A DNA stretch of 64,000 bases, taken from positions 5,062-69,061 of the forward strand of contig CAZPHS010000003.1 in assembly GCA_964586785.1 (NCBI GenBank). Direction: 5' to 3'. This document shows positions 11,587 to 30,413 of this stretch, piece after piece (the stretch's first letter is position 1; each line of letters starts with the position of its first letter). The translations under genes and the position numbers were made by a program. Under the pieces are notes generated by a model. The model had not been told where the DNA came from and searched no databases. It saw only the letters and a program-made list of their open reading frames with translations. The DNA comes from an uncultured Christensenellaceae bacterium. Lineage in GTDB: Bacteria > Bacillota > Clostridia > Christensenellales > SZUA-584.

Positions 11587-12414
11587 GTGACAAAGAAAAT
11601 CGCTGTATTGCAGATTGATTCGGTTTTGGCGGATATAGATGCGAACTTATCCAAGATAGATAAGATGATCGGATCGATCAACGACAGGGATGTGCGTATG
11701 GCTGTTTTCTGCGAATACGGATTGACAGGGTACTGCACTGATTTGAATAAAATCGCCGAACCTGTTCCGGGTAGAATGATAAATGCCCTTGAAGCGATTT
11801 CGAAAAAGCACAACATATGGATCAGCGGAGGCACTGCAGAGCTGGTAGGCGACAAAATCGCCAATACAACAGTAATGATTTCTCCTGATAACGGTATGGT
11901 GGCAAAGTACAGAAAAATACATCCTTTCGGTGACGAGAGAAATGCCATCATTTATGGTGATGAGCCTGTTGTCGTCGATACCGAGATAGGAAAAGTCGGT
12001 ATGACAATCTGTTATGACTTTATTTTTCCAGAGCTTGTACGCGGGCTCGCGCTTAAAGGCGCCGAAATCATTCTCAATTCAACATTCTGGTTTGCTGATG
12101 ATATCAGCGGTCCCGCCGGTTTTGAGCCCGAACAGGTCATGTCGCTGGCAAGAATCAGAGCGCTTGAAAACAACGTTTATGTGGCCATGGCGTGCCGTAC
12201 CGGCGAAGAAACGGCACCATGGGGCGGAAAGGTGCGCGGTTTCGGGTATTCTTCAATTGCAGGCCCTGTCGGGAAAACGCTTGCTCACGCCGGTCTTGGA
12301 GAGATGGTTATTACAGCGGATATCGATCTTGAAAAACGCAAGGCATGGGCTGAATATGCTGCGTATTTAAAGGACCGCAGGCCGGATATCTATAAAAACA
12401 TTCTTGATTTTTAA
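11587..12414 (+). CDS. carbon-nitrogen hydrolase (nitrilase superfamily; amidase/N-carbamoyl-amidase type)
   Basis: The E-K-C triad context is intact: VFCEYGLTGY, KYRKIHPF, GMTICYDFIFPE. A GGGAGGA RBS precedes the GTG start. Confidence 0.85.
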   Translation: MTKKIAVLQIDSVLADIDANLSKIDKMIGSINDRDVRMAVFCEYGLTGYCTDLNKIAEPVPGRMINALEAISKKHNIWISGGTAELVGDKIANTTVMISPDNGMVAKYRKIHPFGDERNAIIYGDEPVVVDTEIGKVGMTICYDFIFPELVRGLALKGAEIILNSTFWFADDISGPAGFEPEQVMSLARIRALENNVYVAMACRTGEETAPWGGKVRGFGYSSIAGPVGKTLAHAGLGEMVITADIDLEKRKAWAEYAAYLKDRRPDIYKNILDF

Positions 12415-12435
12415 AAAGCTTTTATGGGAGAGAAA

Positions 12436-13389
12436 ATGAGTAAAACCCAGATAGTAAACCAATACAATAGCGTCTATATCGTAATGGTCCTACTGTGCGT
12501 TGCGGCTTTTATATACAAACCCTCGTATATGCAAGCTGAGAACATTTATGTCATGCTCAGGCAGACATCGGCACTTGGCATGCTAGCGTTGGGGCAGCTG
12601 TTTGTCATATCGGCAGGCGGCGTTGACCTATCCGTCGCGGCCACGATGCAGGGCGCTGTAACGATTTTCATGTTCAGTTCCAATACCTACGGTCCTGCAG
12701 GATTGGTTGTCGGGATCGTTTTGAGTCTGATCGCCGGACTGATTGTCGGCCTTATAAACGGAATCATTATTGCCAAGTTTAAAGTACAGCCTTTTCTGAC
12801 AACTCTTTTTACAGGCGCCATACTGGTCGGCATCAGACGCGTATTTGCAGGTGTTACACCGATGGGCGTTGCACCCCGGCAAATAATGGACATTGTCAAA
12901 GGCGAAAAGTCGGGCGCTTTTCCAAATGCTTCGTTGATTTTTCTGTTTTTCTCTGTAATTGTGTTCGTAATTTTCAAGTACACGGTTTACGGCAGAAAAA
13001 TCATGTCGGTAGGAACAAATCCGACTGCGGCGTTGTTCTCGGGATATAAAATAGACCGCATTAAAATATCGACGTATTGCATAAGCGCATTGGCTGCAGT
13101 GCTTTCCTCAATCGTTATGGTCGGTTACACGGGATACGCAGACCAGGAGGCACTGGGGAAAGGCATGGAGATGGATTCGCTCGTGGCGGTCGTGCTTGGC
13201 GGCAATTATCTTGGCGGCGGCCGCGGATCGGTTGTCGGTACGGTGGGCGGCGTGCTTGTCACAACATTAATTATCAACATTGTAATACTGTTCGGATTTG
13301 AAATACAGCATCAATATGTTGTCAAGGGCGTTATATTGCTGCTTGTTACATTTATCGCTTCACTTGTCAGAAAAAATGCACATGTTTAA
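12436..13389 (+). CDS. ABC transporter permease, ribose/CUT2 type (RbsC-like)
   Basis: About 10 TM segments with the RbsC-like GGVDLSV motif. I start at MSKTQ (12436) behind a GGGAGAG RBS. Confidence 0.85.
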   Translation: MSKTQIVNQYNSVYIVMVLLCVAAFIYKPSYMQAENIYVMLRQTSALGMLALGQLFVISAGGVDLSVAATMQGAVTIFMFSSNTYGPAGLVVGIVLSLIAGLIVGLINGIIIAKFKVQPFLTTLFTGAILVGIRRVFAGVTPMGVAPRQIMDIVKGEKSGAFPNASLIFLFFSVIVFVIFKYTVYGRKIMSVGTNPTAALFSGYKIDRIKISTYCISALAAVLSSIVMVGYTGYADQEALGKGMEMDSLVAVVLGGNYLGGGRGSVVGTVGGVLVTTLIINIVILFGFEIQHQYVVKGVILLLVTFIASLVRKNAHV

Positions 13390-13429
13390 ATTTCGGAGTA
13401 AATCCGGATTAATTAAAGGAGGTAATACA

Positions 13430-14503
13430 ATGAGACTTAAGAAAAAGACAGGCTTAATACTCGTAGTAGCTATTGCCGTTATGATGCTTTTTGCGGCTTG
13501 TGCTCCGACTGAGAGCCCGGAACCTGGGAAAAACCAGCCTGATACCGAAACTAAAGCTCCGGGGGATGGACAAAAATACAACATCGGTGTGAGCTGGCAG
13601 GGTGCAAACAACGACTGGGCAAGCATGGTGCTGTACCATTTCAACTATGGGTTTGATGTCAAGTATGCCGACAAAGTAGAAAATGTCTACATCAATGCAT
13701 GCGACATGGATGACACTAAGCAGATAGCCGACGTGGAAGACCTTCTTGTTAAGGGTATCGACATACTGCTGATACAGCCTGTCAGCGAATCCTCGCTGGC
13801 GAATGTAATCGAAAAGGTCAAGGATAACGGTATTCCGGTTGTTGTTTTTGGAGCAAGCGCAGGTACGGATAAGTATGACACGTACATCAACCGTGACGGC
13901 TATATGACTGGCTATAAGTATACCCAATGGATGGGTGAGAGACTTGAAGGCAAGGGCAACGTCATCGTAATAATGGGATGGCCGGGCTCCGGTTACTCGA
14001 ACGATGTTCTTCGCGGTGTCGAAGATGCGCTTGCAGATTACCCCGAAATGGAGGTTCTCGGTACAGAGTACGCTTTATACACGCCCGCAACTTCCAAACA
14101 GATCGTAGAGAGTTACATGGCCAAAGGTGTAACCATCGACGGCGTTATTGTTGACGGTGGCTTGATGAACTTCGGCGTCATAGAAGCCTTCTTAGATGCT
14201 GATATGCCGATTCCCCCGACAACGGGCGATGACAGCACCGGTTTCTTAAAGAAAGTCAGAGATCTTGGCTATACAGATTTCGTATCTCAAAGCGGCGGCG
14301 CCGAACTGGCTATTGATGCAGTGGACGCGGTATTCAGCATACTTGCTGGAGAAGAAGTGCCTAAAGATGATGTCAGAGAGCCTATGTATGTTGAAGGCGC
14401 AGAAATTATTGCAATGATCAAAGACGAAATGCCGGACAGCTACTGGCTGGCGTGCCAGATTCCCGAAGAGGAGCTGGGAAACTACTACAGCATAGAAAAG
14501 TAA
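13430..14503 (+). CDS. ABC transporter substrate-binding lipoprotein (periplasmic-binding-protein type I, RbsB-like)
   Basis: An AAGGAGG RBS precedes the ATG at 13430. The signal peptide carries a lipobox (MMLFAAC). Alternating beta-alpha PBP pattern (IDILLIQPV, GIPVVVFG). The ORF-track start at 13298 is a spurious extension. Confidence 0.85.
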   Translation: MRLKKKTGLILVVAIAVMMLFAACAPTESPEPGKNQPDTETKAPGDGQKYNIGVSWQGANNDWASMVLYHFNYGFDVKYADKVENVYINACDMDDTKQIADVEDLLVKGIDILLIQPVSESSLANVIEKVKDNGIPVVVFGASAGTDKYDTYINRDGYMTGYKYTQWMGERLEGKGNVIVIMGWPGSGYSNDVLRGVEDALADYPEMEVLGTEYALYTPATSKQIVESYMAKGVTIDGVIVDGGLMNFGVIEAFLDADMPIPPTTGDDSTGFLKKVRDLGYTDFVSQSGGAELAIDAVDAVFSILAGEEVPKDDVREPMYVEGAEIIAMIKDEMPDSYWLACQIPEEELGNYYSIEK

Positions 14504-14587: not shown

Positions 14588-17080
14588 TTGACCACTATGG
14601 CCGCTTCAATATTACAAATTAAAAATGTAACAAAACACTTCTTTGGCGTTAAAGCCTTGAATGATGTTAGCTTTGACATCAACAAAGGCGAGATCGTTGG
14701 GCTGCTTGGAGCCAACGGTGCGGGGAAAAGCACGCTATTGAAGATCATAGGCGGTATTCAGTCGGCTGATTCTGGAGAAATTCTCTATGAGGGCGAGCCG
14801 CTTAATTTAAAAACGCCCCATGATGCACAGCAAAAGGGGTTGATCAGCGTTTACCAGGAACTGAATCTTTTCCTGAACATGACCGTAGCGGAAAATCTCT
14901 TTTTGGGAAGGGAATGCAAGGATGGCCTTGGTTTTGTAGACTGGAAAAAAACAAATAAGGAAGCAGAATTCATACTGAAGGGTATGGGTCTGAATATCGA
15001 TCCGTGCACAGTTGTTAGCAATCTGAGTGTTGCACGTCAGCATTTGATAGAAATCGCAAGAGCGATCAATGAAAAACCGAAAGTACTTCTTCTGGACGAG
15101 CCCACGGCGGCATTGTCGGAAGATCAGATAGAATGGTTGTTTAAGCAGGTGCGCGGCTTGGTTGAGGCCGGAACGACAGTGATTTATGTTTCGCACCGTT
15201 TGGACGAAGTGTCCGAGTTTTGCAGCCGTTGCGTGATACTGCGTGACGGACGCTTGACGGCCATATTAGACGACGAATTTGATAAATGCAATATAGTCAA
15301 GAACATGATCGGCTATGATGTCGTTTTGGAGAAAAAAGCCGCAGCAAAAGAATGTAAAGACGTGGTTTTTGAATGCGAAGGCCTGAGCGTAAAGGGCAAG
15401 CTTGATGATGTCAGCTTTAAAGTCGGACGCGAAGAGATTTTGGGTATCGCCGGTTTGGTGGGGGCAGGGCGCACAGATCTGCTGCGTGCGATATACGGTG
15501 TCGACAAGGCGGATAGCGGAATCCTTAAACTAAACGGTAAGCCGCTCAATATAAATCATACAAGCGACGCGATAAAAAATAAAATAGTGCTGATCAGCGA
15601 AGACAGAAAGCTGGAAGGCTTGTTTCTTGCCGAACCCGTAAAACTCAATCTCGCTGCCAATACATTAAAAGACAGAGCAACCGTGGGATTTATAAAAAGC
15701 AAAGAAGAAACAAAAGCGGCAAAGGAGATAAGCGGGAAAGTCAGCCTTGATAAAGGACGCCTTAGAAGCCCTGTGCGGATGCTTTCGGGCGGCAACCAGC
15801 AAAAGGTGGTTATCGGCAAGGCGCTGCTTACAGGCGCGGATCTTCTGTTGATGGACGAGCCGTCTCGCGGCGTAGACGTTGGCGCACGTGAAGAGATATA
15901 CAAGATTATCAACAGTCTTTCAGAAGAGGGCAAAGGCATTATACTCGTATCTTCCGACTGGGAGGAGCTTTTGGCGCTGTCGGACAGGGTAATCGTAATG
16001 TCCGAAGGAAGGCTCACTCAAGAGCTTTCGGGCGATGCCATCACTGAAGAGAACATCATGCACGCTTCAACAATAGCCAATCTGAATAAGGCTGAAAAAG
16101 CGGTAAAGAATGGGAGCCCCATAAAGCGTATGACGTCTAAGATGCTAGGCAAAAACTCGGCTGTTTTGGCGCTTATGCTGGCGGTGCTGATCATCATAGG
16201 CATGAGTACATCACCGACGTTTTTAAGCATCAACAATGTTAAAAATCTTTTTTGGCAGTCTTTTACCTTTATACTGTTGACGCTCGGACAGCTGACGGTG
16301 ATCATATCAGGCGGTATAGACCTGGCAAACGGCGCGATATTGACTGTATCAGGCGTTACAGGCTTAACGATCATGAATTCAGGGCCGAATATGTTTTGGC
16401 CGGGTCTGTTTGCTATGCTGGCCGTCGGGATTGTTGTCGGTCTGATAAACGGGCTGCTGGTAGTAAAGGCACGTATGGACGCTTTTATTGCAACGCTGGG
16501 TATCAGCATTGCTTTGCAGGGTGCGGCGCTTATCATCACACCGAAACCCATATTTCCTGTGCCGGATGTACTTAAATACATATCCAATAAAGAGTGGCTT
16601 GGGCTGCCAATCATACTGTTTATCGGTATTTTGATTGTCGCAATATTCGCGGTGCTGCTAAAATACCGCCCAATGGGCAGGCGGCTGTATGCCATAGGAG
16701 AAAACCAGAGAAATGCGCATTGGCTGGGCTTGCCGGTTCAATCAACGCAAGTCTGTGCTTATATGGTCAGTGCGCTGTTGGCGGCGGTGGCATCGATCTA
16801 TATGCTCGGAAGAAGAGGTGCTGCAGAATCGGCTGTTAATTCGGGCATGATGCTTGACTCAATCGCTTTTTCACTGATTGGCGGCGCAACGCTGGCGGGA
16901 GGAAAGGGCAGTGTAGCGGGTTCACTGCTTGGCGTATTTTCCATCGCGATACTGATGAACATATTAAACCAGATTGGTGTGGGCATGTACTTCCAGCAGA
17001 TCATACGCGGTGTGCTGCTTATGGGCATTATCATTTCGTATGAACGGCGGATTTCGAAACGAAAAGAAATAACAGTTTAA
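14588..17080 (+). CDS. fused ABC ATPase (two nucleotide-binding domains, RbsA-like) plus C-terminal RbsC-like permease domain
   Basis: NBD1: GANGAGKST, LLLDEPTAAL. NBD2: GLVGAGRTD, LSGGNQQK, LLMDEPSRGVD. From about residue 520 there is a multi-TM permease with GGIDLANG. It is one uninterrupted 830-codon frame. Confidence 0.85.
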   Translation: MTTMAASILQIKNVTKHFFGVKALNDVSFDINKGEIVGLLGANGAGKSTLLKIIGGIQSADSGEILYEGEPLNLKTPHDAQQKGLISVYQELNLFLNMTVAENLFLGRECKDGLGFVDWKKTNKEAEFILKGMGLNIDPCTVVSNLSVARQHLIEIARAINEKPKVLLLDEPTAALSEDQIEWLFKQVRGLVEAGTTVIYVSHRLDEVSEFCSRCVILRDGRLTAILDDEFDKCNIVKNMIGYDVVLEKKAAAKECKDVVFECEGLSVKGKLDDVSFKVGREEILGIAGLVGAGRTDLLRAIYGVDKADSGILKLNGKPLNINHTSDAIKNKIVLISEDRKLEGLFLAEPVKLNLAANTLKDRATVGFIKSKEETKAAKEISGKVSLDKGRLRSPVRMLSGGNQQKVVIGKALLTGADLLLMDEPSRGVDVGAREEIYKIINSLSEEGKGIILVSSDWEELLALSDRVIVMSEGRLTQELSGDAITEENIMHASTIANLNKAEKAVKNGSPIKRMTSKMLGKNSAVLALMLAVLIIIGMSTSPTFLSINNVKNLFWQSFTFILLTLGQLTVIISGGIDLANGAILTVSGVTGLTIMNSGPNMFWPGLFAMLAVGIVVGLINGLLVVKARMDAFIATLGISIALQGAALIITPKPIFPVPDVLKYISNKEWLGLPIILFIGILIVAIFAVLLKYRPMGRRLYAIGENQRNAHWLGLPVQSTQVCAYMVSALLAAVASIYMLGRRGAAESAVNSGMMLDSIAFSLIGGATLAGGKGSVAGSLLGVFSIAILMNILNQIGVGMYFQQIIRGVLLMGIIISYERRISKRKEITV

Positions 17081-17114: not shown

Positions 17115-17645
17115 ATGTTTAATGACGGAAGATCAAAAAAAGTTGTTGTTGTTGTACACTGCGTTTTGAATCACAATGCCAGAATGGATCCTTACGCAAG
17201 GCATAAAGGTGCCGTGACCGAAATCGTCGATTATTTGATGGAGAAAGATTACGGCATACTGCAGATACCATGCCCTGAGTTTTTATACATGGGTCTTCTG
17301 CGCGAAAAAAGAACAAAAGAGCTTCCAGAAGTGTGGCATGTATTGGGAACGCCGGAAGGTCGCGCGAAGTGCAGGGAAATTGCGCTGCAAACGGCTATGC
17401 AAATCAAACAGTACAGGGAAAATGGTTTTTATGTGGCCGCCGTTATCGGAAAAAATCAAAGCCCCTCATGCGGCGTTGAGGAAACCACGATCGGCGATGA
17501 AGTGTTGGAAGGGCCGGGAATCTTCATACAAGAGCTAAGAAAAGTATTTGAGGAGCAGGGCATTGAGATCCCCATCGTTGCCTGTCCTCAGGGAGAAAAC
17601 GAATCCGTGGGGATACTCGATTGGCTTAAGGAAAATGTAAAATAA
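17115..17645 (+). CDS. DUF523 / TudS-like (2-thiouracil desulfurase family) putative 3-Cys [4Fe-4S] protein
   Basis: Three Cys lie in family-typical contexts: VVVHCVLNHNARMD, IPCPE and NQSPSCG. A GAAGGAGG RBS is present. The assignment rests on motif pattern only. Confidence 0.55.
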   Translation: MFNDGRSKKVVVVVHCVLNHNARMDPYARHKGAVTEIVDYLMEKDYGILQIPCPEFLYMGLLREKRTKELPEVWHVLGTPEGRAKCREIALQTAMQIKQYRENGFYVAAVIGKNQSPSCGVEETTIGDEVLEGPGIFIQELRKVFEEQGIEIPIVACPQGENESVGILDWLKENVK

Positions 17646-17737: not shown

Positions 17738-18505
17738 ATGAGAAAATTACTAGAAAAGACAGCGGACAGATTAATTGTTAAGGCATTTGAAACTCGCGAA
17801 GAGATGGGTCGTGAGGCGGCAGAAGACGCAGCGCAAAGAATCAATGCGATTATTGAGAAAAAGGGCTTTGTTAATGCTGTTTTTGCGGCTGCGCCATCGC
17901 AAAACGAGTTTCTTGCGTGTTTACTTGAGCAGGATATTGACTGGAGTAAGGTGCAGGCTTTTCATATGGATGAATATGTCGGACTGGACAAAGACGCGCC
18001 GCAGGGCTTCGGTAATTTTTTAAGAGACGCTATTTTCGGCAAAGTCCCGTTCGCGAAAGTTAACTACCTGAACGGACAGGCGGCAGATATCAGCCGGGAA
18101 TGTGAACGCTATTCGAAACTGCTTGAAGAGAATCCTGTGGACATCATATTTTTGGGTATAGGTGAAAACGGGCATCTCGCATTCAACGACCCGGCCGTTG
18201 CAGATTTTGATGACCGCCGTAAGGTTAAGGCGGTACAGCTGGATATCGTCTGCAGAAACCAGCAGGTGAACGACGGTTGTTTTGAAAAGCTGGAGGACGT
18301 GCCTAAATCGGCACTGACGCTGACGATGTCTATGATCATGAGCGTTCCAGAAGCGGTTGTCATCGTTCCCGGCGCTCAGAAAAAGTATGCGGTTAAAAGA
18401 ACAACCCACGGTGATATCACGACACAGTGCCCGGCAAGCATACTTAAGCAGCACCAAAGTGCGGTTTTATATCTTGATAAAGAAAGTGCGCAGGATTTGC
18501 TGTAA
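17738..18505 (+). CDS. glucosamine-6-phosphate deaminase / 6-phosphogluconolactonase family protein (NagB-like)
   Basis: AAAPSQNEF, FHMDEYVGL and GIGENGHLAFNDP motifs are characteristic of the NagB/SugarP-isomerase family. Confidence 0.8.
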   Translation: MRKLLEKTADRLIVKAFETREEMGREAAEDAAQRINAIIEKKGFVNAVFAAAPSQNEFLACLLEQDIDWSKVQAFHMDEYVGLDKDAPQGFGNFLRDAIFGKVPFAKVNYLNGQAADISRECERYSKLLEENPVDIIFLGIGENGHLAFNDPAVADFDDRRKVKAVQLDIVCRNQQVNDGCFEKLEDVPKSALTLTMSMIMSVPEAVVIVPGAQKKYAVKRTTHGDITTQCPASILKQHQSAVLYLDKESAQDLL

Positions 18506-18521
18506 AGAAGGGATAAAGAAC

Positions 18522-19268
18522 ATGTTGTCTTATGACATGACCATAGAAGATATTGAAAAACTCAATCCGGATACGGCAGTGCTTGCGTTTGCATCTATTG
18601 AGCAGCATGGCGCGCATTTGCCGGTGTCCACAGATTATATAACGACGGAAGCTTTTGCACGCGGTGTTGCCGAGCAGCTCGGGGCTTTTTTGATACCGAC
18701 TTTTCCGATAAGCAATTGCCGCGAGCACATGGGCAAAAAGGGAAGCGTCTGGATGAAGCCAGATACATTTTACAATATGGTGATCGATATCTGCCATTCG
18801 CTCAAGGAGCAGGGGTTTAAAAAGGCCGTCATCATTCGAGGGCACGGCGGCATATTTGTTTTGTCTCCGACGATACGAGAATTAAATGCTACGCTGAATT
18901 CTGATTTTATGGTGTGCTGTGTTGAGTATTATGATTATGTCGATGCATACAGAAAAGCAGGCATTATTGAAAGCGATGTATGCCTGCATGCGGACGAGCT
19001 GGAGACTTCTGTCGTTATGCATTTGCGCGGCGATCTGGTTAAAAATGATCAGATAAGCGACTTTGTTCCTGATGCACCAAGGACTTATTTAAACTATGGC
19101 AGCATTTTCTGCGCAAGTCCAAAAGGTGTCTGGGGCAGGCCTTCATATGCATCCGCAGAAAAGGGAGAAAAGGTGCTCAAAATGGGAATCGAGCTGATGG
19201 CCGCGGAGGCAAAACGAGCGTTTGATTACATGCAGAATAAAAACACAATCGGTTATAGTGATTTTTAA
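18522..19268 (+). CDS. creatininase-family (cyclic amide) amidohydrolase
   Basis: SIEQHGAHLPVSTDY signature, later RGHGG and HADELETS. I start at the ATG at 18522; the ORF-track start at 18357 overlaps the upstream gene. Confidence 0.8.
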   Translation: MLSYDMTIEDIEKLNPDTAVLAFASIEQHGAHLPVSTDYITTEAFARGVAEQLGAFLIPTFPISNCREHMGKKGSVWMKPDTFYNMVIDICHSLKEQGFKKAVIIRGHGGIFVLSPTIRELNATLNSDFMVCCVEYYDYVDAYRKAGIIESDVCLHADELETSVVMHLRGDLVKNDQISDFVPDAPRTYLNYGSIFCASPKGVWGRPSYASAEKGEKVLKMGIELMAAEAKRAFDYMQNKNTIGYSDF

Positions 19269-19289
19269 CATTAAAATTTTTTAAGAGAA

Positions 19290-19322: not shown

Positions 19323-19967
19323 TTGAAGAGGGTTAAAGACAGCAGAAAATCAAAAGAAGATATATTGAATGCCGCAGAGATGCTGTTTAGCCAAAAAGGT
19401 TTATATGGTACGCGCGTTGATGACATCGCGGTGATGGCAAAAATCAATAAGCGCATGATCTATGAATATTTCGGTTCTAAAGTGGATTTGTATAAAGAGG
19501 TGCTGACAAAGGTATACAGCAAGATCGGCAACACAGGAAAGGCTGTAATCCGGCAGGACATGGTGTATACGCAGGCAGTAAAAAATGCAGCCGCATTTTA
19601 TTTTAACTACTTAAATGCGCACCCGACATATGTAAATCTTTTGCTGTGGGAGAATCTGAACCAAGGGGAATACATCTCTAAGGTTCAGATAAAAGAGCTC
19701 AATCAGCCGGTGCTTGAGGACCTGCAAAAGATTATAGAACGTGACCAGAAAAACGGTACCATCAGAAGCGATTTTGAGTCTAAATTTATTATCACGGCGC
19801 TGCTGACAAGCACGTTTGCGTATTTTTCAAACAGGTATACGCTCTCAAAGCTGCTGCAGTATGATTTTAAATCGATACAAAGCATACAGAAAAGGGCGGA
19901 AGACTTAGCCGAGATGATGATTGCATATATACAGAAAACTAAGGAGGAAGAAGATGAAAAAAATTAA
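19323..19967 (+). CDS. TetR/AcrR-family transcriptional regulator
   Basis: N-terminal HTH: KEDILNAAEMLFSQKGLYGTRVDDIAVMAKINKRMIYEYFGSK. Confidence 0.9.
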   Translation: MKRVKDSRKSKEDILNAAEMLFSQKGLYGTRVDDIAVMAKINKRMIYEYFGSKVDLYKEVLTKVYSKIGNTGKAVIRQDMVYTQAVKNAAAFYFNYLNAHPTYVNLLLWENLNQGEYISKVQIKELNQPVLEDLQKIIERDQKNGTIRSDFESKFIITALLTSTFAYFSNRYTLSKLLQYDFKSIQSIQKRAEDLAEMMIAYIQKTKEEEDEKN

Positions 19968-21024: not shown

Positions 21025-21027
21025 CAG

Positions 21028-23661: not shown

Positions 23662-23672
23662 AGGAGCAAAAG

Positions 23673-24728
23673 ATGAGTAAAACGATATTTCAGAAGGATC
23701 TTGAACAGTTCTGCATTGATGCGTTGAATAAAAGCGGTATGGAAAGCTTATACGCGGTAGTAACGGCAAAAGTGCTAGTCGAAACGGATGCATACGGCAC
23801 ACATTCACACGGCACAAAGAACTTAAGGCTTTATATTGAGAAATTCAAGGCAGGCGCGCTCGATCAGAAAGCGCGGCCCGAATTTATACTGCAGGGCGGT
23901 GCGTTTGCGGTGATGGATGCTAAGGATGCCATGGGCATGGTATCCTCGTATCTCGCTATGGAGAAAGCCGTTGAGCTTGCGCAAAAAAGCGGCATCGGTT
24001 TTGTCAGTGTAAAAAACAGCTGTCATTTCGGAGCCGCGGGTTACTACGCAAACATGGCGGCCCAAAAAGGGCTTATCGGCATTGCAATGAGCAACACCGA
24101 CCCGAACATGACGGTGCCGGGCGGAAAAAGCATGATCATAGGAAACAGCCCGATTGCGTATGCGGTTCCGGCCGGTAAGTATAAGAGTATGTTTTTGGAT
24201 ATCGCGATGAGCGCAACGGCTGCGCTGAAAATAAATCAGGCCAAGCTCGAAAAAAAAGCGATCCCAAATACGTGGCTGGTTGACGATAAGGGCATACCGA
24301 CGACCGATCCAAAGTATTACGGAAATGGCGGGGCGCTTCAGCCGATGGCGGCGCACAAGGGCTATGGGCTTTCTTTACTGGTTGACGTGCTCTCAGGGGT
24401 GCTTTCGGGCGGCGAGATAACCAGCGGCATCACAAGCTGGTGTTTTGATATGGCCGCAAAAAACAGAGTCAGCCATGCTTTTATTGCACTGGATATCAGA
24501 CAAATGCAGCCGGAAGATAAATTCATAGAAAGAATAGAGGGCTATATCGATTATTTGAAAAATGCGCCCAAAGCCAAAGGCAACGATACGATTTATTATC
24601 CGGGTGAAATTGAATGGCTTAAGAAACAAAAGGCCGATGAGCAGGGAATAGCTCTGCCTGATGATGTGGTTCAAAGCTTAGAGCAGCTTGCACAAAGCAC
24701 AGGCCTGAGTCTTGCTTGGGTCCAATGA
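23673..24728 (+). CDS. Ldh2-family (malate/L-lactate/ureidoglycolate/diketogulonate-type) dehydrogenase
   Basis: THSHGT and CHFGAAGYYA segments match Ldh_2 family patterns. An AAGGAG RBS precedes the ATG at 23673. Confidence 0.8.
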   Translation: MSKTIFQKDLEQFCIDALNKSGMESLYAVVTAKVLVETDAYGTHSHGTKNLRLYIEKFKAGALDQKARPEFILQGGAFAVMDAKDAMGMVSSYLAMEKAVELAQKSGIGFVSVKNSCHFGAAGYYANMAAQKGLIGIAMSNTDPNMTVPGGKSMIIGNSPIAYAVPAGKYKSMFLDIAMSATAALKINQAKLEKKAIPNTWLVDDKGIPTTDPKYYGNGGALQPMAAHKGYGLSLLVDVLSGVLSGGEITSGITSWCFDMAAKNRVSHAFIALDIRQMQPEDKFIERIEGYIDYLKNAPKAKGNDTIYYPGEIEWLKKQKADEQGIALPDDVVQSLEQLAQSTGLSLAWVQ

Positions 24729-24754
24729 GTTTAAACGGCTAAAAGGGTAACGGT

Positions 24755-25669
24755 ATGCCGGATTTCTCATCACTCATATTGATGCTGATGCTGATTTGCA
24801 CGGGGTTTGTTCTGAGCAGGGTCAAGCTTTTACGCCGGGAGCAAACCAGTGCGCTTCCGGGGCTGCTGCTCAATATGGCTTACCCCGCGTTGATCATAAA
24901 ATCGGTCACATCAGTCGATGTGGGCAGACTTGCAAAGGAGAGTCTGATCGTTGCGGGGGTCACCGCTGCGGTGACGCTGGCGCTGTTTGTTTTGGGTACT
25001 GTGCTGTTAAAGCGGTATAAAGACGCAAAGAGAAGGCCTTTGATACTCTTTTCTATGGCAGTCGGCAACATCGCGTATGTGGCTCTGCCTGTGGTGCGGA
25101 TGCTGTACGGAGATGTGGGCGTTTATTACACGATACTCCACAGCACCACGCAGGATGTGATGATATGGACGCTGTATTATGCCTATTTTGTAGGCGGCGG
25201 CACGCTCAAAGGGTTTAAGCCCAAAAAAATATTGAGCCCCGGATTTGCCGCAATCGTGCTGGGGGTGCTGCTCGCGGCATTTGGAATCAAACCGCTGGGC
25301 ACTGTGGCAATGTTTTTAGAAGCGCTTGCGGCGCTTACGGTGCCTCTGGCGCTGGTTTACATCGGTGCCGTTTTGGCATCGTACAAAAAAAGCAGTGACT
25401 GGATGCCCGATAGGGATACCTGTTTGATTTCTGTAATCAAGGTTCTTGTGCTGCCGGCCGCCGTTTATGGCATTATGTGGCTTGTGCCTGCCGATGCGGA
25501 ATTAAGACTGATGATGGCATTGTTTTTCGCGGCGCCGGTCACGGTGCTCAGCACCATTTGGGCAAAAGAGTATGGATTCGATTACCATTTCTCGGTTAAA
25601 GCGCTGATTTTCTCGACGCTGTTGTTTCTGCTGGCGGCCGGAGCCACCATAATATGGATGGACAGATAA
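24755..25669 (+). CDS. AEC (auxin efflux carrier) family transporter
   Basis: About 10 TM helices in a two-repeat organisation typical of the AEC/malonate-type permease family. Confidence 0.75.
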   Translation: MPDFSSLILMLMLICTGFVLSRVKLLRREQTSALPGLLLNMAYPALIIKSVTSVDVGRLAKESLIVAGVTAAVTLALFVLGTVLLKRYKDAKRRPLILFSMAVGNIAYVALPVVRMLYGDVGVYYTILHSTTQDVMIWTLYYAYFVGGGTLKGFKPKKILSPGFAAIVLGVLLAAFGIKPLGTVAMFLEALAALTVPLALVYIGAVLASYKKSSDWMPDRDTCLISVIKVLVLPAAVYGIMWLVPADAELRLMMALFFAAPVTVLSTIWAKEYGFDYHFSVKALIFSTLLFLLAAGATIIWMDR

Positions 25670-25696
25670 AAAATTTGAAACTGGAGGATTATAAAT

Positions 25697-26509
25697 ATGC
25701 AGATGCGTATCGACGGTAAAGTTGCCGTTGTAACCGGAGGGGCAGGCGTATTGTGTGCGCAAATGGCAGTAGGGCTCGCTGCAAGCGGTGCTAAGGTTGC
25801 CGTACTTGATATAAGCACCGATAAAGCGCAGGAAGTTGCGGACGGTATCGCAAACCTCGGCTATAAGGCCATTGCGATGGAATGCAATGTACTGAGCAAG
25901 GAAAGCGTGGAGAAGGCATGCAGTTTAGTTATCGGCAAGTTCGGTACGGTCGATATTTTGATAAACGGTGCCGGCGGAAATAAAGCCGACGCGACGACGG
26001 GCGCTAATATGAGCTTTTTCGATATGCCCAAAGAGGCCATAGAATGGGTGTTTGATTTGAATCTTATGGGCACAATACTGCCCACGCAGGTTTTCGGACG
26101 TGTGTTTGCACAAAAAAAAGGAGGCTGTGTCGTCAACGTTTCGTCTATGGCGGCCTTTACGCCTTTGACTAAAACGGTGGCTTACAGCGCAGCCAAAGCG
26201 GGCGTGACGAATTTTACGCGGTGGATGGCGACGCATTTTAATCAGGAGTATTCGCCGAATATTCGCGTTAATGCCATTGCGCCCGGGTTTTTGCTGACAC
26301 AGCAGAATGAATACCTGCTTGTCGATCAAAAAACAAAACAGCACACAGAAAGGGGCGCAAAGATTATCGCGGGCACGCCGATGGGGCGCTATGGCAAACC
26401 CGAAGAACTGGTGGGCGCCGTCGTTTTCCTGTGTTCTTCCGCCGCTTCTTTCATCAACGGTGCAGTCTTGCCGATTGACGGGGGATACGCCGCATATTCA
26501 GGCGTATAA
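25697..26509 (+). CDS. SDR oxidoreductase, UxuB/YjmF-like (short-chain D-mannonate/fructuronate-type)
   Basis: TGGAGVL, NGAGGNKADATT...FFDM insertion, YSAAKAG, PIDGGY. It sits directly upstream of eda and kdgK. Confidence 0.7.
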   Translation: MQMRIDGKVAVVTGGAGVLCAQMAVGLAASGAKVAVLDISTDKAQEVADGIANLGYKAIAMECNVLSKESVEKACSLVIGKFGTVDILINGAGGNKADATTGANMSFFDMPKEAIEWVFDLNLMGTILPTQVFGRVFAQKKGGCVVNVSSMAAFTPLTKTVAYSAAKAGVTNFTRWMATHFNQEYSPNIRVNAIAPGFLLTQQNEYLLVDQKTKQHTERGAKIIAGTPMGRYGKPEELVGAVVFLCSSAASFINGAVLPIDGGYAAYSGV

Positions 26510-26538
26510 CGATATAAACAATTTTAAGGAGTGCAGAA

Positions 26539-27498
26539 ATGGATAATGTATTGAAAAAAATCGGAGACATGGGTCTGGTACCGGTCGTCGTCATTGAAGA
26601 TGCCGACCTTGCGGTACCGGCGGCAAAGGCCTTGATTGACGGCGGGCTTGATGTGATGGAAATCACCATGCGCACCGAGCAAGGTATTGCCGCAATCGAG
26701 AAAGTCAAAAAAGCGTATCCGGATATGCTGGTAGGAGCCGGAACGGTACTGACGGTCGAAAAAGCCAAAGAAGCCGTCGGCGCCGGTGCAGAATTTATCG
26801 TCGCGCCAGGATTCAACCCAGATATGGTTCAGTGGTGCATGGATAAGAATATTGCGATAACACCGGGGTGTGTAACGCCCACCGAAATCGAGCAGGCGCT
26901 CAAAGCCGGCCTTAACACGCTTAAATTCTTTCCGGCCAATATCTACGGAGGCATAGACGGATGCAAAGCGCTGAACGGTCCGTACCGTATGGTCAAGTTT
27001 ATACCAACAGGCGGCGTCAGTCTCAGCAACCTGTCCGATTTCACCGACAAACCCTTCATACATGCCATCGGCGGGGGATGGCTGTGTAAAACAGCCGATA
27101 TCAAAGCGCAGAACTTTGAAGCCATTACCAAGGTGGTTAAAGAATCGATCAACGTGCTGCTCGGGTTTGAAATGGCGCACATCGGTATCAATGTCCAAAA
27201 CGCGGATGAGTCCTTGAAAACTGCCGGGAGGTTTGCAGACGGTTTCGGATTTTCGGTCAAACAAGGAAATTCCTCTAATTTTGTGGGCAGTGGCATTGAA
27301 GTGAATAAGGCGGCCGGGCTAGGTGCCAACGGGCACATTGCGATACGCACCAGCAGCATCGCGCGTGCGGTTTATTATCTTGGTAAGAGAGGTTATTGCG
27401 TCGACTGGAGCACCAGTAAAGGGCCGGAGCAAAGGCCGGTTGCTGTTTATCTGAAAGACGAAATCGGCGGCTTTGCAATACACCTTTTACAAAAATAG
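26539..27498 (+). CDS. eda: KDPG/KHG aldolase fused to a C-terminal VOC (glyoxalase-like) domain
   Basis: The first ~210 aa are Eda-like (VPVVVIEDA, EITMRT, GAGTVL, KFFPA, IPTGGV). A further ~105 aa (MAHIGINVQNADES...GHIAIRTSSIARAVYYL...FAIHLLQK) looks like a single VOC module. Confidence 0.8.
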   Translation: MDNVLKKIGDMGLVPVVVIEDADLAVPAAKALIDGGLDVMEITMRTEQGIAAIEKVKKAYPDMLVGAGTVLTVEKAKEAVGAGAEFIVAPGFNPDMVQWCMDKNIAITPGCVTPTEIEQALKAGLNTLKFFPANIYGGIDGCKALNGPYRMVKFIPTGGVSLSNLSDFTDKPFIHAIGGGWLCKTADIKAQNFEAITKVVKESINVLLGFEMAHIGINVQNADESLKTAGRFADGFGFSVKQGNSSNFVGSGIEVNKAAGLGANGHIAIRTSSIARAVYYLGKRGYCVDWSTSKGPEQRPVAVYLKDEIGGFAIHLLQK

Positions 27499-27507
27499 CG
27501 GAGGAAC

Positions 27508-28542
27508 ATGATGATGAAAAAAGTTATTACATTCGGAGAAGTGATGCTTAGGCTCAAGTCGCCCGGCAATGAAAGGATGTTTCAGTCTCCCGCGCTGGAG
27601 GCGACATTTGGAGGCGGAGAAGCAAATGTGGCTATTTCGCTGGCCAACTTTGGTATGAACGTTGCTTTCGTCACTGCACTGCCCAAAAATATGATCGGTG
27701 AGAGCTGTGTGCAGGAACTCAGAAAATGGGGCGTGGATACATCGAAAATCATCAGGAGCGACGCACGAATGGGTGTCTATTTCCTTGAAACGGGCGCGAA
27801 CCAGCGGCCATCCAGCGTGGTCTATGACAGAGATCAATCCGCAATTTCACTGGCAAAACCGGGTGATATCGACTGGGATGTCGTGTTTGACGGTGCAGAA
27901 TGGTTCCATATTACCGGCATTACCCCGGCTATAAGCAAAGATGCAAAAGAGCTTTCTTTCGAAGCGGTCAAAAAGGCAAAAGAGAAAGGGCTGACGATAT
28001 CCTGCGACTTCAATTTCCGCAAAAAACTGTGGAAATACGGCGAGTCAGCCACCGATGTGATGCCAAGGCTCGTTGAATACTGCGACTACGGCATAGCGAA
28101 TGAAGAGGACTGCCAGAAGTCTCTCGGTGTTCATATAGACGTAAAAGTGGAAAGCGGCAAACTGGATACCGATCAATACAAGGCTTTGGGTGACAAGGTT
28201 TTAAGTATGTATCCGAACTTAAAGGCCATTGCCATCACGTTGCGCGAAAGCGTCAGTGCGGATATAAACGGCTGGGCGGCATGCCTGAATGACAGAAACA
28301 CCTTTAGCCTGAGCAAAAAATATGAAATCAGGGACATCATTGACCGCGTCGGCGGCGGTGATTCGTTTGCTGCCGGTTTGATATACGGTCTTAATGCCTA
28401 CAGCAGCAAACAGGAGGCGCTTGAATTTGCCGTTGCGGCAAGCTGCCTTAAGCATTCCATCATGGGCGACTTCAACCGTGTGACTGTCGCCGAAGTGGAG
28501 AAGCTCAAAGGCGGTGATGCGTCGGGCAGGGTTCAGCGCTAA
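27508..28542 (+). CDS. kdgK: 2-dehydro-3-deoxygluconokinase (PfkB family)
   Basis: [19 protein letters not shown] and the C-terminal [13 protein letters not shown] motif; adjacent to eda. Confidence 0.85.
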
Positions 28543-28586
28543 GCCATGCGGGATGTAGCCAAGCATCGGGATTCGGGAGATGTGCA

Positions 28587-29783
28587 TTGAAAAATAATAA
28601 AGAAATCCTTGGAGTTTACCCAATATTCTTTTGTTATGCTTTTTATTTATCGATGCTTGGCCAGCTGGTCCCGTATCTGCAGCAAAAATACGGACTTGTG
28701 CTCATGGGCGCGGGTTTGTTTTCAACGCTGCAGTCGGTGGGGGGTATAGCAGCGGTATGTATCTACATAATGTATCTGGATTGGGTCAGCAAACCAAAGC
28801 TTCTGGCAGTTTTGGGCATCGTCTTTGGCATCCAGATGGCATTTGTAGGAATGATGCCGACTTTTTTGCTGGCTTGTCTGCTCTTTGTACTCATAGGTTT
28901 TGTCAACAGCTTCGTCAACGCACTATCAAATGCCGTTGTATCAGATTATACCATGGAGCAAAGAGGGCTGTATCTTAATCTGCTGCATGGTTTTTTCGGA
29001 CTTGGCGGAGCAGTAGGTTCACAGGCGGCGGGCTTTATAAAAGGTGTTGCCGGTATAGAACAGACCTTTTTGTGGTTTGGTGTCATCGCAGCGGGGTTTG
29101 CTTTTAGCTACCATTTGTTATTGAGGCGCGGTATGCAGTTCCCTGTTGTTGCAGTGAGACAATCATCAGCGGTCCGGTTGCACGTATTAAAGCAGGCCAT
29201 TAAAATACCCGGCATGATAAGCGTTGTTTTGGTAGCATTTTTCAATGCATTTGTATTGATCAACGTGCTATACTTTACATATTCATATGTTTACGGGTTA
29301 AGCGGTAACATACGTATTTCGGCAGCCGCGATAACAGTTTTTTTTGTTTTTATGGCATTGAGCCGTTTCATCGGAACAAAACTGACGAAAAGGCTAACGC
29401 CCAAACAGTTCGTTTTCTGGGGCAGCCTTCTTGGATTTGGCGCATACATCATTGCCGGCTTGACGGTAAACGTATTTGTTGTTGTTGCTATGATAGGGAT
29501 GCTTGGTTTTTTTACGGGAAACCATTTGCCTCAGATTACCAACGCCGCGTGCTCGATCATCCCCGAAACGTCGGCAGCAGCGACGGGGCTGATCACTCTT
29601 GGTTATTTTCTTGCAACCATTGTGGCTTCGCCGATTATCGGATGGGTAGGCGATGCTTTTAGTCTCAAGCATGCGTTGATGGTTAATGCTTTGATGCTTG
29701 TGCCGGCCGCAATGCTTTCCTTGAAGATGGGTAGCGGAAAACTGATAAATCATAAAGAATATCAATTAAATATAAAAATATGA
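28587..29783 (+). CDS. MFS transporter
   Basis: 12-TM profile; TTG start behind a GGGAGA RBS. Confidence 0.75.
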   Translation: MKNNKEILGVYPIFFCYAFYLSMLGQLVPYLQQKYGLVLMGAGLFSTLQSVGGIAAVCIYIMYLDWVSKPKLLAVLGIVFGIQMAFVGMMPTFLLACLLFVLIGFVNSFVNALSNAVVSDYTMEQRGLYLNLLHGFFGLGGAVGSQAAGFIKGVAGIEQTFLWFGVIAAGFAFSYHLLLRRGMQFPVVAVRQSSAVRLHVLKQAIKIPGMISVVLVAFFNAFVLINVLYFTYSYVYGLSGNIRISAAAITVFFVFMALSRFIGTKLTKRLTPKQFVFWGSLLGFGAYIIAGLTVNVFVVVAMIGMLGFFTGNHLPQITNAACSIIPETSAAATGLITLGYFLATIVASPIIGWVGDAFSLKHALMVNALMLVPAAMLSLKMGSGKLINHKEYQLNIKI

Positions 29784-29795
29784 AAGGATGGCATT

Positions 29796-30413
29796 ATGCT
29801 TAAATTTGAAACAGACAAAACCGCGCTTGTGATCGTTGATCTTCAGAATGATTTTGTGCGTATCGGAGCCGCTTTGGAAGTTGCCGATGCACGAAAAACA
29901 ATACCTGTGGCTCAGAAACTGATTGCTTTTGCACGTAAGAAAAATATGCCGATTGTCTTTACTAAATTTGTTGCAGGGCCAAAGAGAACTCTTCTTTGGA
30001 ACTGGAGCCCGCAAATTAAAGAAGACAGTTGCTGCTTTCGCAACTTTAAACGCTATTATCTTGAAGAAGGAAAAGAGCTCGAAGTTACCGATATTATATC
30101 GGAGTTAAAACCAGAACCCCATGATTATATCATCGAAAAGTATGGTTACTCTTCTTTTAGAAATACTGCGCTGCAGGATATCTTGGCGGCTGAAAACAGA
30201 GACTCCATCATTGTTTTAGGTACGGTTACGCAGATCTGTGTTGAGGATACGGTGCATGATGCTTTTCATCTTGGTATTAAAACGCTGGTGGCAAAAGACG
30301 GCGTATCCTCGTTTGACAGCCAACTGCATGATGCCGCGATAAAGAATTTCGAGATGAAATATGCGGCGGTTGCGGATTCGGACAGCATTATAAAGATGAT
30401 GAGTGAAAATTAA
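29796..30413 (+). CDS. isochorismatase-family cysteine hydrolase (RutB / N-carbamoylsarcosine amidase / nicotinamidase family)
   Basis: ALVIVDLQNDF (Asp), a conserved Lys region, and GTVTQICVEDT with the nucleophile Cys. Confidence 0.8.
   Translation: MLKFETDKTALVIVDLQNDFVRIGAALEVADARKTIPVAQKLIAFARKKNMPIVFTKFVAGPKRTLLWNWSPQIKEDSCCFRNFKRYYLEEGKELEVTDIISELKPEPHDYIIEKYGYSSFRNTALQDILAAENRDSIIVLGTVTQICVEDTVHDAFHLGIKTLVAKDGVSSFDSQLHDAAIKNFEMKYAAVADSDSIIKMMSEN

Follow-up and report, generated by a model that had tools for sequence, protein, structure and literature searches.

The DNA analysed here is a 64-kb stretch (the window, taken at its full length; all coordinates are window positions) of contig CAZPHS010000003.1 from an uncultured Christensenellaceae bacterium, which carries at 11587-30413 a string of eighteen genes on the + strand separated by short gaps. 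We conclude with high confidence that this string combines two catabolic modules, each conserved independently of the other and both on the same strand, with module B (17738-29783) and an orphan TudS-like gene lodged inside module A, where they lie between the ATP-binding cassette (ABC) transporter genes of module A and its isochorismatase gene. Module B is best classed as a type of sugar-acid catabolic operon with a genuinely unusual signature enzyme, an 877-amino-acid fusion of DHO_dh, Fer4_20, Pyr_redox_2 and Fer4 domains (21028..23661, + strand). No description of module B, or of a comenate or pyranone pathway, was found in the published full-text literature, and the module appears to be undescribed. 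Judging from its gene content, it is rather probable that module B breaks down an anionic six-membered ring derived from a sugar, by a route without a dehydratase, and there is a similarly good case that the substrate is of an anionic sugar type, funnelled to 2-keto-3-deoxygluconate (KDG) and its 6-phosphate (KDPG) or to hexonates, and is not a pyrimidine or a ureide.

A sequence-only reading of the same DNA had treated the whole string as one pathway for a sugar-linked N-heterocycle, in which five enzyme families with members acting on pyrimidine, ureide or cyclic-amide rings would cooperate. That five-family pathway is an artefact of the two interleaved modules, and the locus carries a general caution, given that five "ring-amide" families came to stand in one operon-like string through the interleaving of two unrelated modules.

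Two modules interleaved on one strand

Genes of the region were assigned with Pfam and NCBIfam models and the gene calls in the contig's public record. Relatives of the fusion protein were sought by scanning one genome per GTDB species with an alignment of 16 homologues, which gave 386 positive species, so that relatives occur in at least 386 species genomes; 80 loci were fetched, and additional module-B loci came from exact-protein look-ups. For module A, the C-N hydrolase was searched against metagenome contigs, yielding 19 loci. Homologues of the C-N hydrolase, the TudS-like protein and the isochorismatase-family hydrolase were found in none of the 83 fusion-carrying loci scanned for them and likewise in none of the Pfam-annotated module-B loci fetched later, and none of the 19 C-N hydrolase loci carries a module-B gene. 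Co-occurrence of all five families was seen only in this organism's own contigs.

Each module can be followed as a unit elsewhere. In locus L088, the closest relative with long flanks (fusion 78% identical), synteny is gene for gene from the NagB-like gene to the transporter of the major facilitator superfamily (MFS), at 50-80% identity; there module B is preceded by a LacI gene and a LivJ-type ABC transporter, whose binding protein is encoded at 2053-3315 of that locus, and the C-N hydrolase, TudS-like and isochorismatase genes are absent. In locus L092, on the other side, the C-N hydrolase, permease, substrate-binding protein, ATPase/permease, isochorismatase, old yellow enzyme (OYE), short-chain dehydrogenase (SDR) and fumarate-reductase-like (FRD-like) flavoprotein genes form one contiguous string. 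The module junctions in the window contain no meaningful direct or inverted repeats, and the contrast in GC fraction is mild, about 0.50 versus 0.44-0.47.

The gene inventory of the sequence-only reading was essentially right. Pfam and NCBIfam models and the translations place the five families where it had put them, with intact catalytic motifs, and the CUT2 ribose-type ABC system and the NagB-like, Gfo/Idh/MocA, Ldh_2, UxuB-like SDR, Eda and KdgK genes are present as well, while a dihydropyrimidinase of the Amidohydro_1 or Amidohydro_3 type is indeed absent from the region; it overlooked the TetR, AEC and MFS genes, and the ABC ATPase and the second permease are a single open reading frame (ORF). 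Its grouping fared differently, since co-occurrence across neighbourhoods fails for the five-family set and holds for the subset formed by the reductase fusion, the creatininase-like protein, NagB-like protein, Gfo, SDR, Ldh_2, Eda and KdgK, which is a real and widely conserved unit.

Upstream of the long + strand gene string lies a sigma-70-like promoter (11481-11509, + strand) that matches 12/12 positions and has an extended -10 TG. No strong terminator-like site was found between the genes as far as 30413, and the gap between the MFS and isochorismatase genes is 12 bp. Both modules are probably read from this strong promoter, and they may be co-transcribed in this organism.

Conserved core and variable slots of module B

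In the window, module B opens with a gene for a NagB-fold isomerase/deaminase with a deleted phosphate loop (17738..18505), which is followed, always on the + strand, by a creatininase-family metal hydrolase (18522..19268; PF02633, 181.6 bits), a TetR-family regulator (19323..19967), a Gfo/Idh/MocA NAD(P)-dependent sugar dehydrogenase (19954..21024) whose stop lies 4 bases 5' of the fusion gene, the fusion itself, a 2-hydroxyacid dehydrogenase of the Ldh_2 family (23673..24728), a carboxylate-type transporter of the AEC family (Mem_trans; 24755..25669), an SDR of the D-mannonate oxidoreductase (UxuB, SDR-type) subfamily (25697..26509; NF006132), a KDPG/KHG aldolase (Eda; 26539..27498; TIGR01182) with a C-terminal extension of ~110 amino acids, a PfkB-family KDG-type kinase (KdgK; 27514..28542) and an MFS_1 transporter (28587..29783).

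Neighbours of the fusion gene were counted by tblastn of every window protein against the fusion loci, restricted to the 41 loci whose flanks reach at least 6 kb in either direction. The Gfo gene lies directly upstream of the fusion gene in all 41, and in most loci the two form a contiguous run with the creatininase-like gene. Of the 41 loci, 33 have a metal hydrolase; the creatininase-like gene is found in 28, and an Amidohydro_3 gene stands in its place in six. An SDR is near the fusion in 27 loci and the NagB-like gene in 26. A 2-hydroxyacid dehydrogenase of any of three types occurs in 31 (Ldh_2 in 20, D-2-hydroxyacid dehydrogenase in 12), one operon slot being occupied by three non-homologous enzymes, namely two Ldh_2 types and a D-2-hydroxyacid dehydrogenase resembling phosphoglycerate dehydrogenase (PGDH-like). 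Less frequent are an FGGY or PfkB kinase (14/41), malic enzyme (12/41) and Eda (11/41), and the C-N hydrolase, TudS-like and isochorismatase genes are near the fusion in 0/41. The invariant core is thus Gfo plus fusion, with the other slots filled by non-homologous, functionally similar genes; an Oscillospiraceae operon has only four genes, in the order Gfo-fusion-SDR-Amidohydro_3, and the operon of Ruminiclostridium cellobioparum (L081/L041) has Gfo, fusion, 2-hydroxyacid dehydrogenase, SDR, NagB-like, FGGY kinase and creatininase-like genes.

The downstream part varies by lineage. Some loci carry KdgK and Eda, the KdgK-type kinase being 67-77% identical in L001, L002, L088 and others, and in other loci a LarA homologue and a gluconokinase-like FGGY kinase accompany Eda. 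The LarA homologue exceeds the NCBIfam cut-off for "putative hexonate epimerase", consistent with the proposal that LarA group 18 epimerises a hexonate (Desguin et al., PMC7583248), and the FGGY kinases score best against gluconokinase. The shared slot of the three dehydrogenases, the LarA homologue and the gluconokinase-like kinases indicate that a hexonate or 2-hydroxyacid step is integral to module B. The place of TetR is unchanged in L087, L088 and the TetR-type loci, and that of the MFS transporter in L087 and L088. Transporters of module B are of the AEC, MFS_1 and LivJ-type ABC kinds, with CUT1 systems nearby in two lineages; the AEC transporter recurs in L001, L017, L031, L050, L062, L087, L088 and L122, and LivJ-type binding proteins precede module B in L001, L034, L042, L045, L062, L087, L088 and L122. 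In several Oscillospiraceae loci a PyrK-like plus GltD-like pair of the NfnAB type was also observed a few kb upstream of module B (L026 2055-4290, L050 2237-4500), which may be unrelated or may be a redox partner.

Module B ends in enzymes of the KDG/KDPG type without the dehydratase or isomerase that usually generates the 2-keto-3-deoxy acid: tblastn searches with the E. coli UxuA, UxaA, UxaC, KduI, Edd, DgoD and GudD queries gave no match in 88 loci or in the whole window.

The signature enzyme combines a DHO_dh-type FMN barrel, an Fe-S/FAD/NAD(P)H module of the NfnB/GltD type and a C-terminal two-cluster ferredoxin domain. Two [4Fe-4S] sites and the two-cluster ferredoxin give four [4Fe-4S] clusters in total, and the cysteines conserved among 71 fusions (53-100% identity) are 360/364/399/403/407/411 and ten between 817 and 863. 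The NAD(P)H/FAD/Fe-S half is nearest to NfnB-type subunits both by sequence and by Foldseek, and the Foldseek and phmmer matches are NfnB, GltD and dihydropyrimidine dehydrogenase (DPD). In the barrel, K48, N134 and C137 align with K574, N668 and C671 of pig DPD, and N139 and N215 are kept too, the pair N134 and N215 representing the retained DPD N668 and N736; C137 is the predicted catalytic acid. The loop that carries N609 in pig DPD (the GLxNxG loop of dihydroorotate dehydrogenases, DHODs) is replaced by an invariant F74-T75-x-E77-K78-R79, and DPD T737 by an invariant R216. The residues K48/N134/C137/N139/N215, the E-K-R loop and R216 are all at least 97% conserved in the 71 fusions. With the pyrimidine-recognition loop gone and a score against the PreA model (NF006183) of 182 bits, under the cut-off of 335, the earlier assignment of the fusion as a PreA+PreT-type reductase is not supported.

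The fusion nevertheless shares with DPD (the mammalian enzyme and bacterial PreT/PreA) an FMN TIM barrel with Cys in N-x-x-C-P, a GltD-type FAD/NAD(P)H module and four [4Fe-4S] clusters, and in the pathway proposed below a hydrolytic ring-opening enzyme would act next. It differs from DPD in the permuted order of its parts (barrel, Fe-S/FAD/NADPH, ferredoxin), in an NAD(P)H module closer to NfnB, in having E-K-R for the N609 loop and R for T737 together with the low PreA score, and in its neighbours, which are sugar-acid genes and not dihydropyrimidinase or beta-ureidopropionase. With class 1B DHOD (PyrD/PyrK) it has in common the N-x-x-C-P-N active-site motif, in which N139 is as in DHOD and not the His of DPD, and a reversible NAD-linked flavin/Fe-S chain, whereas identity is ~20-25% (46-51 bits), the first substrate-binding Asn is lost, the partner is of the GltD/NfnB type instead of the PyrK type, and the genomic context is catabolic.

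The other module-B enzymes also depart from their best-known relatives. In the creatininase-like protein, E27, H29, D38, H98 and H156 align with E34, H36, D45, H120 and H178 of the P. putida creatininase, so the metal ligands and the catalytic His are kept. Of the four residues which we take, from the P. putida structures, to bind creatinine, Y121 and E122 are missing (the sequence there is GHGG), and W154 and W174 have become Y and S. The protein scores 80 against TIGR04448 (cut-off 235) and 72.5 bits against the IolN model NF041098 (cut-off 245), the latter covering only 10-193 of 307 model positions, and the creatininase, MftE and IolN models are all at a similar distance from it; on scores and residues alike it is predicted to be neither a creatininase nor an IolN. 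The NagB-like protein keeps D72, E73, Y74, H143 and K208 of E. coli NagB invariant, with D141 changed to N and E148 to D, while an 8-residue deletion removes the phosphate loop T41-G42-G43-T44 and R172 is replaced by Q; it scores 148 against TIGR00502 (cut-off 236.9). Since the phosphate loop is lost and kinases are absent from most loci, this protein probably recognises the substrate's own carboxylate.

By contrast, two of the module-B proteins in the window exceed their model cut-offs: the SDR scores 362.8 against NF006132 (cut-off 281), versus only 154-155 against the KduD models (cut-offs 339-369), and Eda scores 233.5 against TIGR01182 (cut-off 156). The Eda extension (27150-27498, residues ~206-319) has no Pfam or PDB-sequence match, and its length is conserved in module-B Eda proteins, which have 318-333 amino acids; it may conceivably adopt a VOC/glyoxalase-like fold. 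For the KdgK-type kinase, the best match is to the kinase portion of the model for the KHG/KDPG aldolase-kinase fusion (494.8 bits; a cut-off of 700 bits is set for the two-domain protein), and the Gfo protein reaches 110 bits against the IolG model (cut-off 355). Taken on these defining residues and score cut-offs, the locus is predicted to lie outside the reductive pyrimidine, Rut, hydantoin and creatinine pathways.

Candidate route of module B and its rivals

The active site of DHOD and DPD reduces a C=C bond alpha,beta to a ring carbonyl, with a beta carbon that bears a ring heteroatom and, in orotate, also the carboxylate; in the DHOD mechanism the carboxylate-bearing ring carbon receives or gives the hydride. 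Oxidation of the allylic C3 hydroxyl of a 4,5-unsaturated hexuronate would give just this arrangement, and we tentatively propose, by analogy, a chemistry in which such a uronate becomes an orotate-like pyranone-carboxylate, which in this specific form we regard as a minority possibility. The Gfo/Idh/MocA enzyme would oxidise the C3 (allylic) hydroxyl of the 4,5-unsaturated hexuronate or its glycoside, and loss of the C1 substituent would leave a planar, comenate-like 5-hydroxy-4-oxo-pyran-2-carboxylate, isosteric with orotate. The fusion would then reduce the ring C=C with NAD(P)H, with hydride going to the carboxylate-bearing carbon and a proton coming from Cys137, which would create the future 3-deoxy methylene. 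The creatininase-like enzyme (Amidohydro_3 in other lineages) would open the reduced ring, as dihydropyrimidinase does with dihydrouracil, at what would be a reduced vinylogous ester. The NagB-fold enzyme without the phosphate loop would isomerise the resulting aldehyde-acid to a ketose-acid, the UxuB-like SDR would reduce the keto group or groups to give a 3-deoxy-hexonate, and the 2-hydroxyacid dehydrogenase (Ldh_2 here) would oxidise C2 to yield KDG, which KdgK and Eda would convert to pyruvate and glyceraldehyde-3-phosphate. In other lineages, the last steps to KDPG would be taken by the LarA-type hexonate 2-epimerase, the gluconokinase-like FGGY kinase and the PGDH-like dehydrogenase. As a sub-variant, the creatininase-like enzyme might act as a retro-Claisen hydrolase, cleaving a reduced 3-keto-4-deoxy-uronate into malate and glycolaldehyde, which would account for the Ldh_2 and malic-enzyme neighbours.

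The proposed chemistry would account for the obligatory Gfo-fusion pair and for the use of a "hard" reductase of the DPD class, as well as for the cyclic-amidohydrolase-type neighbours, the NagB-fold isomerase and the UxuB-like keto-reductase, and it would leave formation of the 2-keto group of KDG/KDPG, with no dehydratase involved, to the 2-hydroxyacid dehydrogenases and the C2 epimerase. Because the transporters are of the AEC, MFS_1 and LivJ types and the NagB-like protein has neither the phosphate loop nor R172, the substrate is probably an anion. A link to uronates is given by the SDR, which exceeds the D-mannonate oxidoreductase cut-off, and by pectate-lyase-type neighbours in two unrelated lineages: in L118 (15351-18765) a Pectate_lyase_2 protein of more than 2142 amino acids with SLH repeats is encoded 52 bp downstream of module B, and in Ruminiclostridium cellobioparum (L041 6735-8522, - strand, and L081) the module is flanked by a pectate-lyase-fold protein with F5/8-type-C and PKD domains. 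As a systematic association this was rejected, the lyase-like neighbours of L118 and L041/L081 having no homologues in the other loci.

Module B seems to work most like a hybrid between an unsaturated-uronate/hexuronate funnel and a DPD-style front end that reduces and then hydrolyses a ring. With the KduI/KduD and DhuI/DhuD pairs, plus KdgF, it would share KDG as end product, passed on to KdgK and Eda, and an SDR reductase; pectate-lyase genes adjoin module B in two lineages, and DhuI offers a precedent for a sugar-phosphate-isomerase family recruited as a 4-deoxy-uronate isomerase (PMC12838403). However, there is no KduI homologue in module-B loci, the SDR is UxuB-like and not of the KduD subfamily, and the Gfo, fusion, metal hydrolase and 2-hydroxyacid dehydrogenase of module B have no counterpart in KduI/KduD or DhuI/DhuD. 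The hexuronate (Ashwell) pathway and the Thermotoga GntE branch likewise use a UxuB-type oxidoreductase, a LarA-type hexonate 2-epimerase (PMC7583248), a gluconokinase-like kinase, KdgK and Eda, whereas UxaC, UxuA, UxaA and Edd are absent from every module-B neighbourhood searched.

Taken as a whole, our explanation has in our judgement somewhat less than an even chance of being right, and several points weigh against it. The chemistry is drawn by analogy with orotate and DHOD, and the AlphaFold2 model of the fusion built from the 16-sequence alignment is poor where it matters (mean pLDDT 67.5, active-site loops below 50), so that the pocket is read from alignments alone. Since a two-enzyme route already exists in KduI/KduD or DhuI/DhuD, an eight-step alternative needs a reason, a possible one being that GH88/GH105 hydrolases are bypassed. 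Only 2 lineages among ~90 loci have lyase genes next to module B, and kinase and Eda genes occur in only about a third of the loci. With its AP_endonuc_2 TIM barrel and additional Gfo, L120 (8235-9967) suggests cyclitols; a D-Ser-dehydratase-like gene, Amidohydro_3 and RidA in L122 (658-3874), with the LivJ-type binding proteins, suggest amino-sugar acids; and malic enzyme with Ldh_2 suggests a possible malate-forming C-C cleavage. Finally, the possible co-transcription of the modules in this organism keeps a lineage-specific functional link between them possible, though not a conserved one.

Among the rival explanations, the N-heterocycle route of the sequence-only reading, by which a glycosylated or ribose-like heterocycle would be imported, reduced, opened and decarbamoylated and its sugar part sent to KDG/KDPG, is very improbable. 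All families that it calls for are present with intact catalytic residues, a single strong promoter precedes their genes, which share a strand and are not separated by any clear terminator, and ring-amide or ureide enzymes occur in every one of the creatininase, Amidohydro_3, DHO_dh, nitrilase and isochorismatase families; yet the C-N hydrolase and isochorismatase, the presumed decarbamoylation enzymes, belong with the ABC importer to a separate operon that is conserved elsewhere and was never near the fusion in the loci scanned, the TudS-like gene belongs to neither module, the fusion has no pyrimidine-binding loop, and none of the families rises above a ureide- or pyrimidine-specific equivalog cut-off. 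What survives of that route is its outline, as ring reduction, ring opening and the passage of carbon to KDG/KDPG make the most economical reading of module B, in which nothing else indicates an N-heterocycle or ureide. A functional interleaving confined to this lineage, with module A importing and de-conjugating an amide or ester conjugate and module B burning its sugar-acid moiety, would fit the single strong promoter, the lack of clear terminators and the small gaps, and the loss here of the LivJ-type ABC importer of the closest relatives suggests that the CUT2 system took over import. We nonetheless consider it unlikely, given that the arrangement is found only in this organism's own contigs, the internal TetR implies separate control of module B, AEC and MFS transporters are still inside that module, and no repeats or other marks explain or date the junctions.

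Two further rivals concern module B itself. T. maritima reportedly degrades inositol (Rodionova and co-workers, 2013) through IolG, IolM, IolN and IolO toward UxaB/UxaA/KdgK/KdgA, and this is to our knowledge the only sugar pathway that pairs a creatininase-family hydrolase with a Gfo/Idh/MocA dehydrogenase toward KDG by way of keto-hexonates. In a cyclitol pathway of this kind, Gfo would make an inosose, the fusion would work oxidatively, like DHOD B, desaturating the bond adjacent to the ketone to form the enol of a 1,3-diketone, the creatininase-family enzyme would produce a 5-keto-hexonate by an IolN-like C-C cleavage, and the NagB-like protein and SDR would lead to a hexonate. IolN is indeed a creatininase-family member against whose model the window protein gives its 72.5 bits, Gfo has 110 bits against IolG, the creatininase-like gene is in most loci contiguous with those for Gfo and the fusion, the TIM barrel of L120 is IolE/IolO-like and accompanied by a second Gfo, and a UxuB-like SDR, hexonate epimerase and gluconokinase-like kinase lie downstream. 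The pathway is still a poor candidate, because these scores are far under the IolN (245) and IolG (355) cut-offs, most loci have no IolO-type TIM barrel, the Fe-S flavoenzyme is not in the Thermotoga route, the transporters are of the anion type and not the inositol type, the use of KdgK and Eda would still require a dehydratase and none is nearby, and the 2-hydroxyacid dehydrogenases are left without a role. An amino-sugar-acid pathway, for instance for N-acyl hexosaminuronates or glucosaminate-type acids that derive from the cell wall or from oxidised chitin, would have the creatininase-like or Amidohydro_3 protein as N-deacylase, the NagB-like protein as a deaminating isomerase giving a keto-uronate, the SDR forming the hexonate, and Gfo and the fusion in a preparatory redox step. 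A deacylase followed by NagB would mirror NagA/NagB, in which a metal amidohydrolase-type enzyme also precedes a NagB-fold enzyme; the NagB-like protein keeps the deaminase catalytic residues (D72, H143, K208) with a remodelled phosphate site, LivJ-type, hence amino-acid-type, binding proteins precede module B in the eight loci named above, and L122 adjoins Amidohydro_3, the D-Ser-dehydratase-like gene and RidA. Unlike NagA/NagB, however, module B has a NagB-like protein without the phosphate loop and with R172 changed to Q, a hydrolase of the creatininase family, and in most loci no kinase or phosphotransferase system was found; moreover, a third of the loci, among them all TetR-type and Oscillospiraceae-type operons, have no NagB-like gene, whereas every locus has Gfo and the fusion, the signature enzyme has no defined role, and ammonia-handling genes do not recur, so that we judge this pathway improbable without dismissing it. 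Kojic acid, ascorbate, shikimate/quinate, muramic delta-lactam, sialic acids of the 2-deoxy-2,3-didehydro-N-acetylneuraminic acid (DANA) type, 4-O-methyl-glucuronate and Amadori compounds were set aside by reasoning, either because several conserved genes would be left without a role or because no C6 2-keto-3-deoxy acid would result.

Returning to the dehydratase-free route, its most far-reaching form would make module B the O-heterocycle counterpart of reductive pyrimidine catabolism, with Gfo forming a pyranone-carboxylate, reduction by the fusion, ring opening and 2-hydroxyacid oxidation to KDG/KDPG, and with the fusion family having no role in pyrimidine metabolism; this we hold to be doubtful. 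If true, it would give the DPD architecture its first non-pyrimidine physiological substrate and would bring a new enzyme logic into sugar-acid catabolism, DPD-type ring reduction replacing a dehydratase. It would also provide an entry of acidic-polysaccharide carbon into central metabolism, independent of dehydratases and of GH88/KduI, in gut and digester anaerobes, and a function for a large family of ~880-amino-acid "FAD-dependent oxidoreductase" fusions that is widespread among Oscillospiraceae, Christensenellaceae and their anaerobic relatives from gut, rumen and digesters. Predictions from metagenomes of the use of pectin, glycosaminoglycans and other acidic glycans would then change, as genomes concerned now seem to be without KduI/KduD or Uxa/Uxu. 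Whatever the substrate, the strict Gfo-fusion pairing with interchangeable hydrolases and 2-hydroxyacid dehydrogenases makes a tractable target, with Ruminiclostridium cellobioparum as a cultured host.

Module A, the TudS-like orphan and flanking genes

Module A comprises two cysteine amidases (one of the nitrilase superfamily, one isochorismatase-like), three oxidoreductases (SDR, FRD-like flavoprotein and OYE), a CUT2 sugar-type importer and a LacI regulator. Its C-N hydrolase (11587..12414, + strand; PF00795, 175 bits) has the triad E43-K110-C142, and it is followed on the + strand by an RbsC-type ABC permease (12436..13389), a CUT2-family substrate-binding protein (Peripla_BP_4; 13430..14503) and an 830-amino-acid protein in which an RbsA-type double ATPase is fused to a second permease (14588..17080). 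Beyond module B lies the isochorismatase-family cysteine hydrolase (29796..30413, + strand; PF00857, 142 bits) with the triad D15-K105-C138. The triads of the two amidases, as well as the cysteines of the TudS-like protein, were read directly in the translations.

At least 10 of the 19 metagenome loci repeat the window order of C-N hydrolase, permease, binding protein and ATPase/permease fusion, and the isochorismatase gene comes directly after the ABC ATPase/permease gene in L092, L093 and L098. The fused ATPase/permease (827-882 amino acids) is kept wherever a module-A locus extends far enough to include it, as in L092 (3812-6301), L093 (12067-14550), L098 (7098-9746) and L104 (12046-14541). 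Upstream of the region, and thus outside the string that had been noticed earlier, the + strand carries the SDR gene of module A (6224..6976; Pfam adh_short), the gene for the FAD_binding_2 (FRD-like) flavoprotein of 650 amino acids (6977..8929) and that for the OYE-type FMN oxidoreductase of 430 amino acids (8947..10239; Pfam Oxidored_FMN). Orthologues of all three, at 40-58% identity, are found in L092; the SDR is 58% identical there, inside the contiguous module-A operon, and 56% identical in L098, flavoprotein orthologues of 57-58% identity adjoin the C-N hydrolase/ABC genes in L092 and L098, and the OYE has orthologues in L092, L096 and L098. The LacI-family repressor gene (10242..11291, - strand) is divergent from the C-N hydrolase gene and has its own sigma-70-like promoter (11406-11378, - strand; 12/12 positions). 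A LacI gene whose product is 31% identical holds the same divergent position beside the C-N hydrolase in L096, and the window LacI is 48% identical to the one that precedes module B in L087/L088.

None of the module-A members reaches an NCBIfam equivalog cut-off. The best models for the C-N hydrolase are archaeal nitrilase (132, cut-off 500) and AguB (93, cut-off 410), and it falls below the carbamoyl-amidase subfamily; the isochorismatase-like protein scores 73 against RutB (cut-off 378), 72 against BiuH (370) and 66 against PncA (174). The nearest solved relatives of the CUT2 binding protein give only ~80 bits, so no ligand can be inferred from them.

The TudS-like gene at the module junction (17115..17645, + strand) encodes a TudS-related three-Cys protein of the CD3072 family, scoring 148.6 against NF045597 (cut-off 130) with Cys16, Cys53 and Cys119 present, and 31.6 against PF04463, under the Pfam cut-off of 34.7; the annotation of the CD3072 family is itself merely "putative desulfidase". 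This gene had been counted as a pathway member, a role that we reject: its only three close relatives in a collection of 5.8 billion proteins are all on tiny contigs, relatives at 40% identity adjoin genes for an HD-domain protein or a glyoxalase, in unrelated contexts, and the gene was found in none of the module-A or module-B loci scanned.

An Amidohydro_2 gene (4700-5698) precedes the SDR, FAD_binding_2 flavoprotein and OYE genes. At the other end, an ORF of 135 amino acids without a family match (30466-30873, - strand; 109 amino acids in the public record) sits between the isochorismatase gene and a GNAT acetyltransferase gene, shortly ahead of the housekeeping genes (rplS, a GTPase gene and the RNase HII gene) with which the cluster ends.

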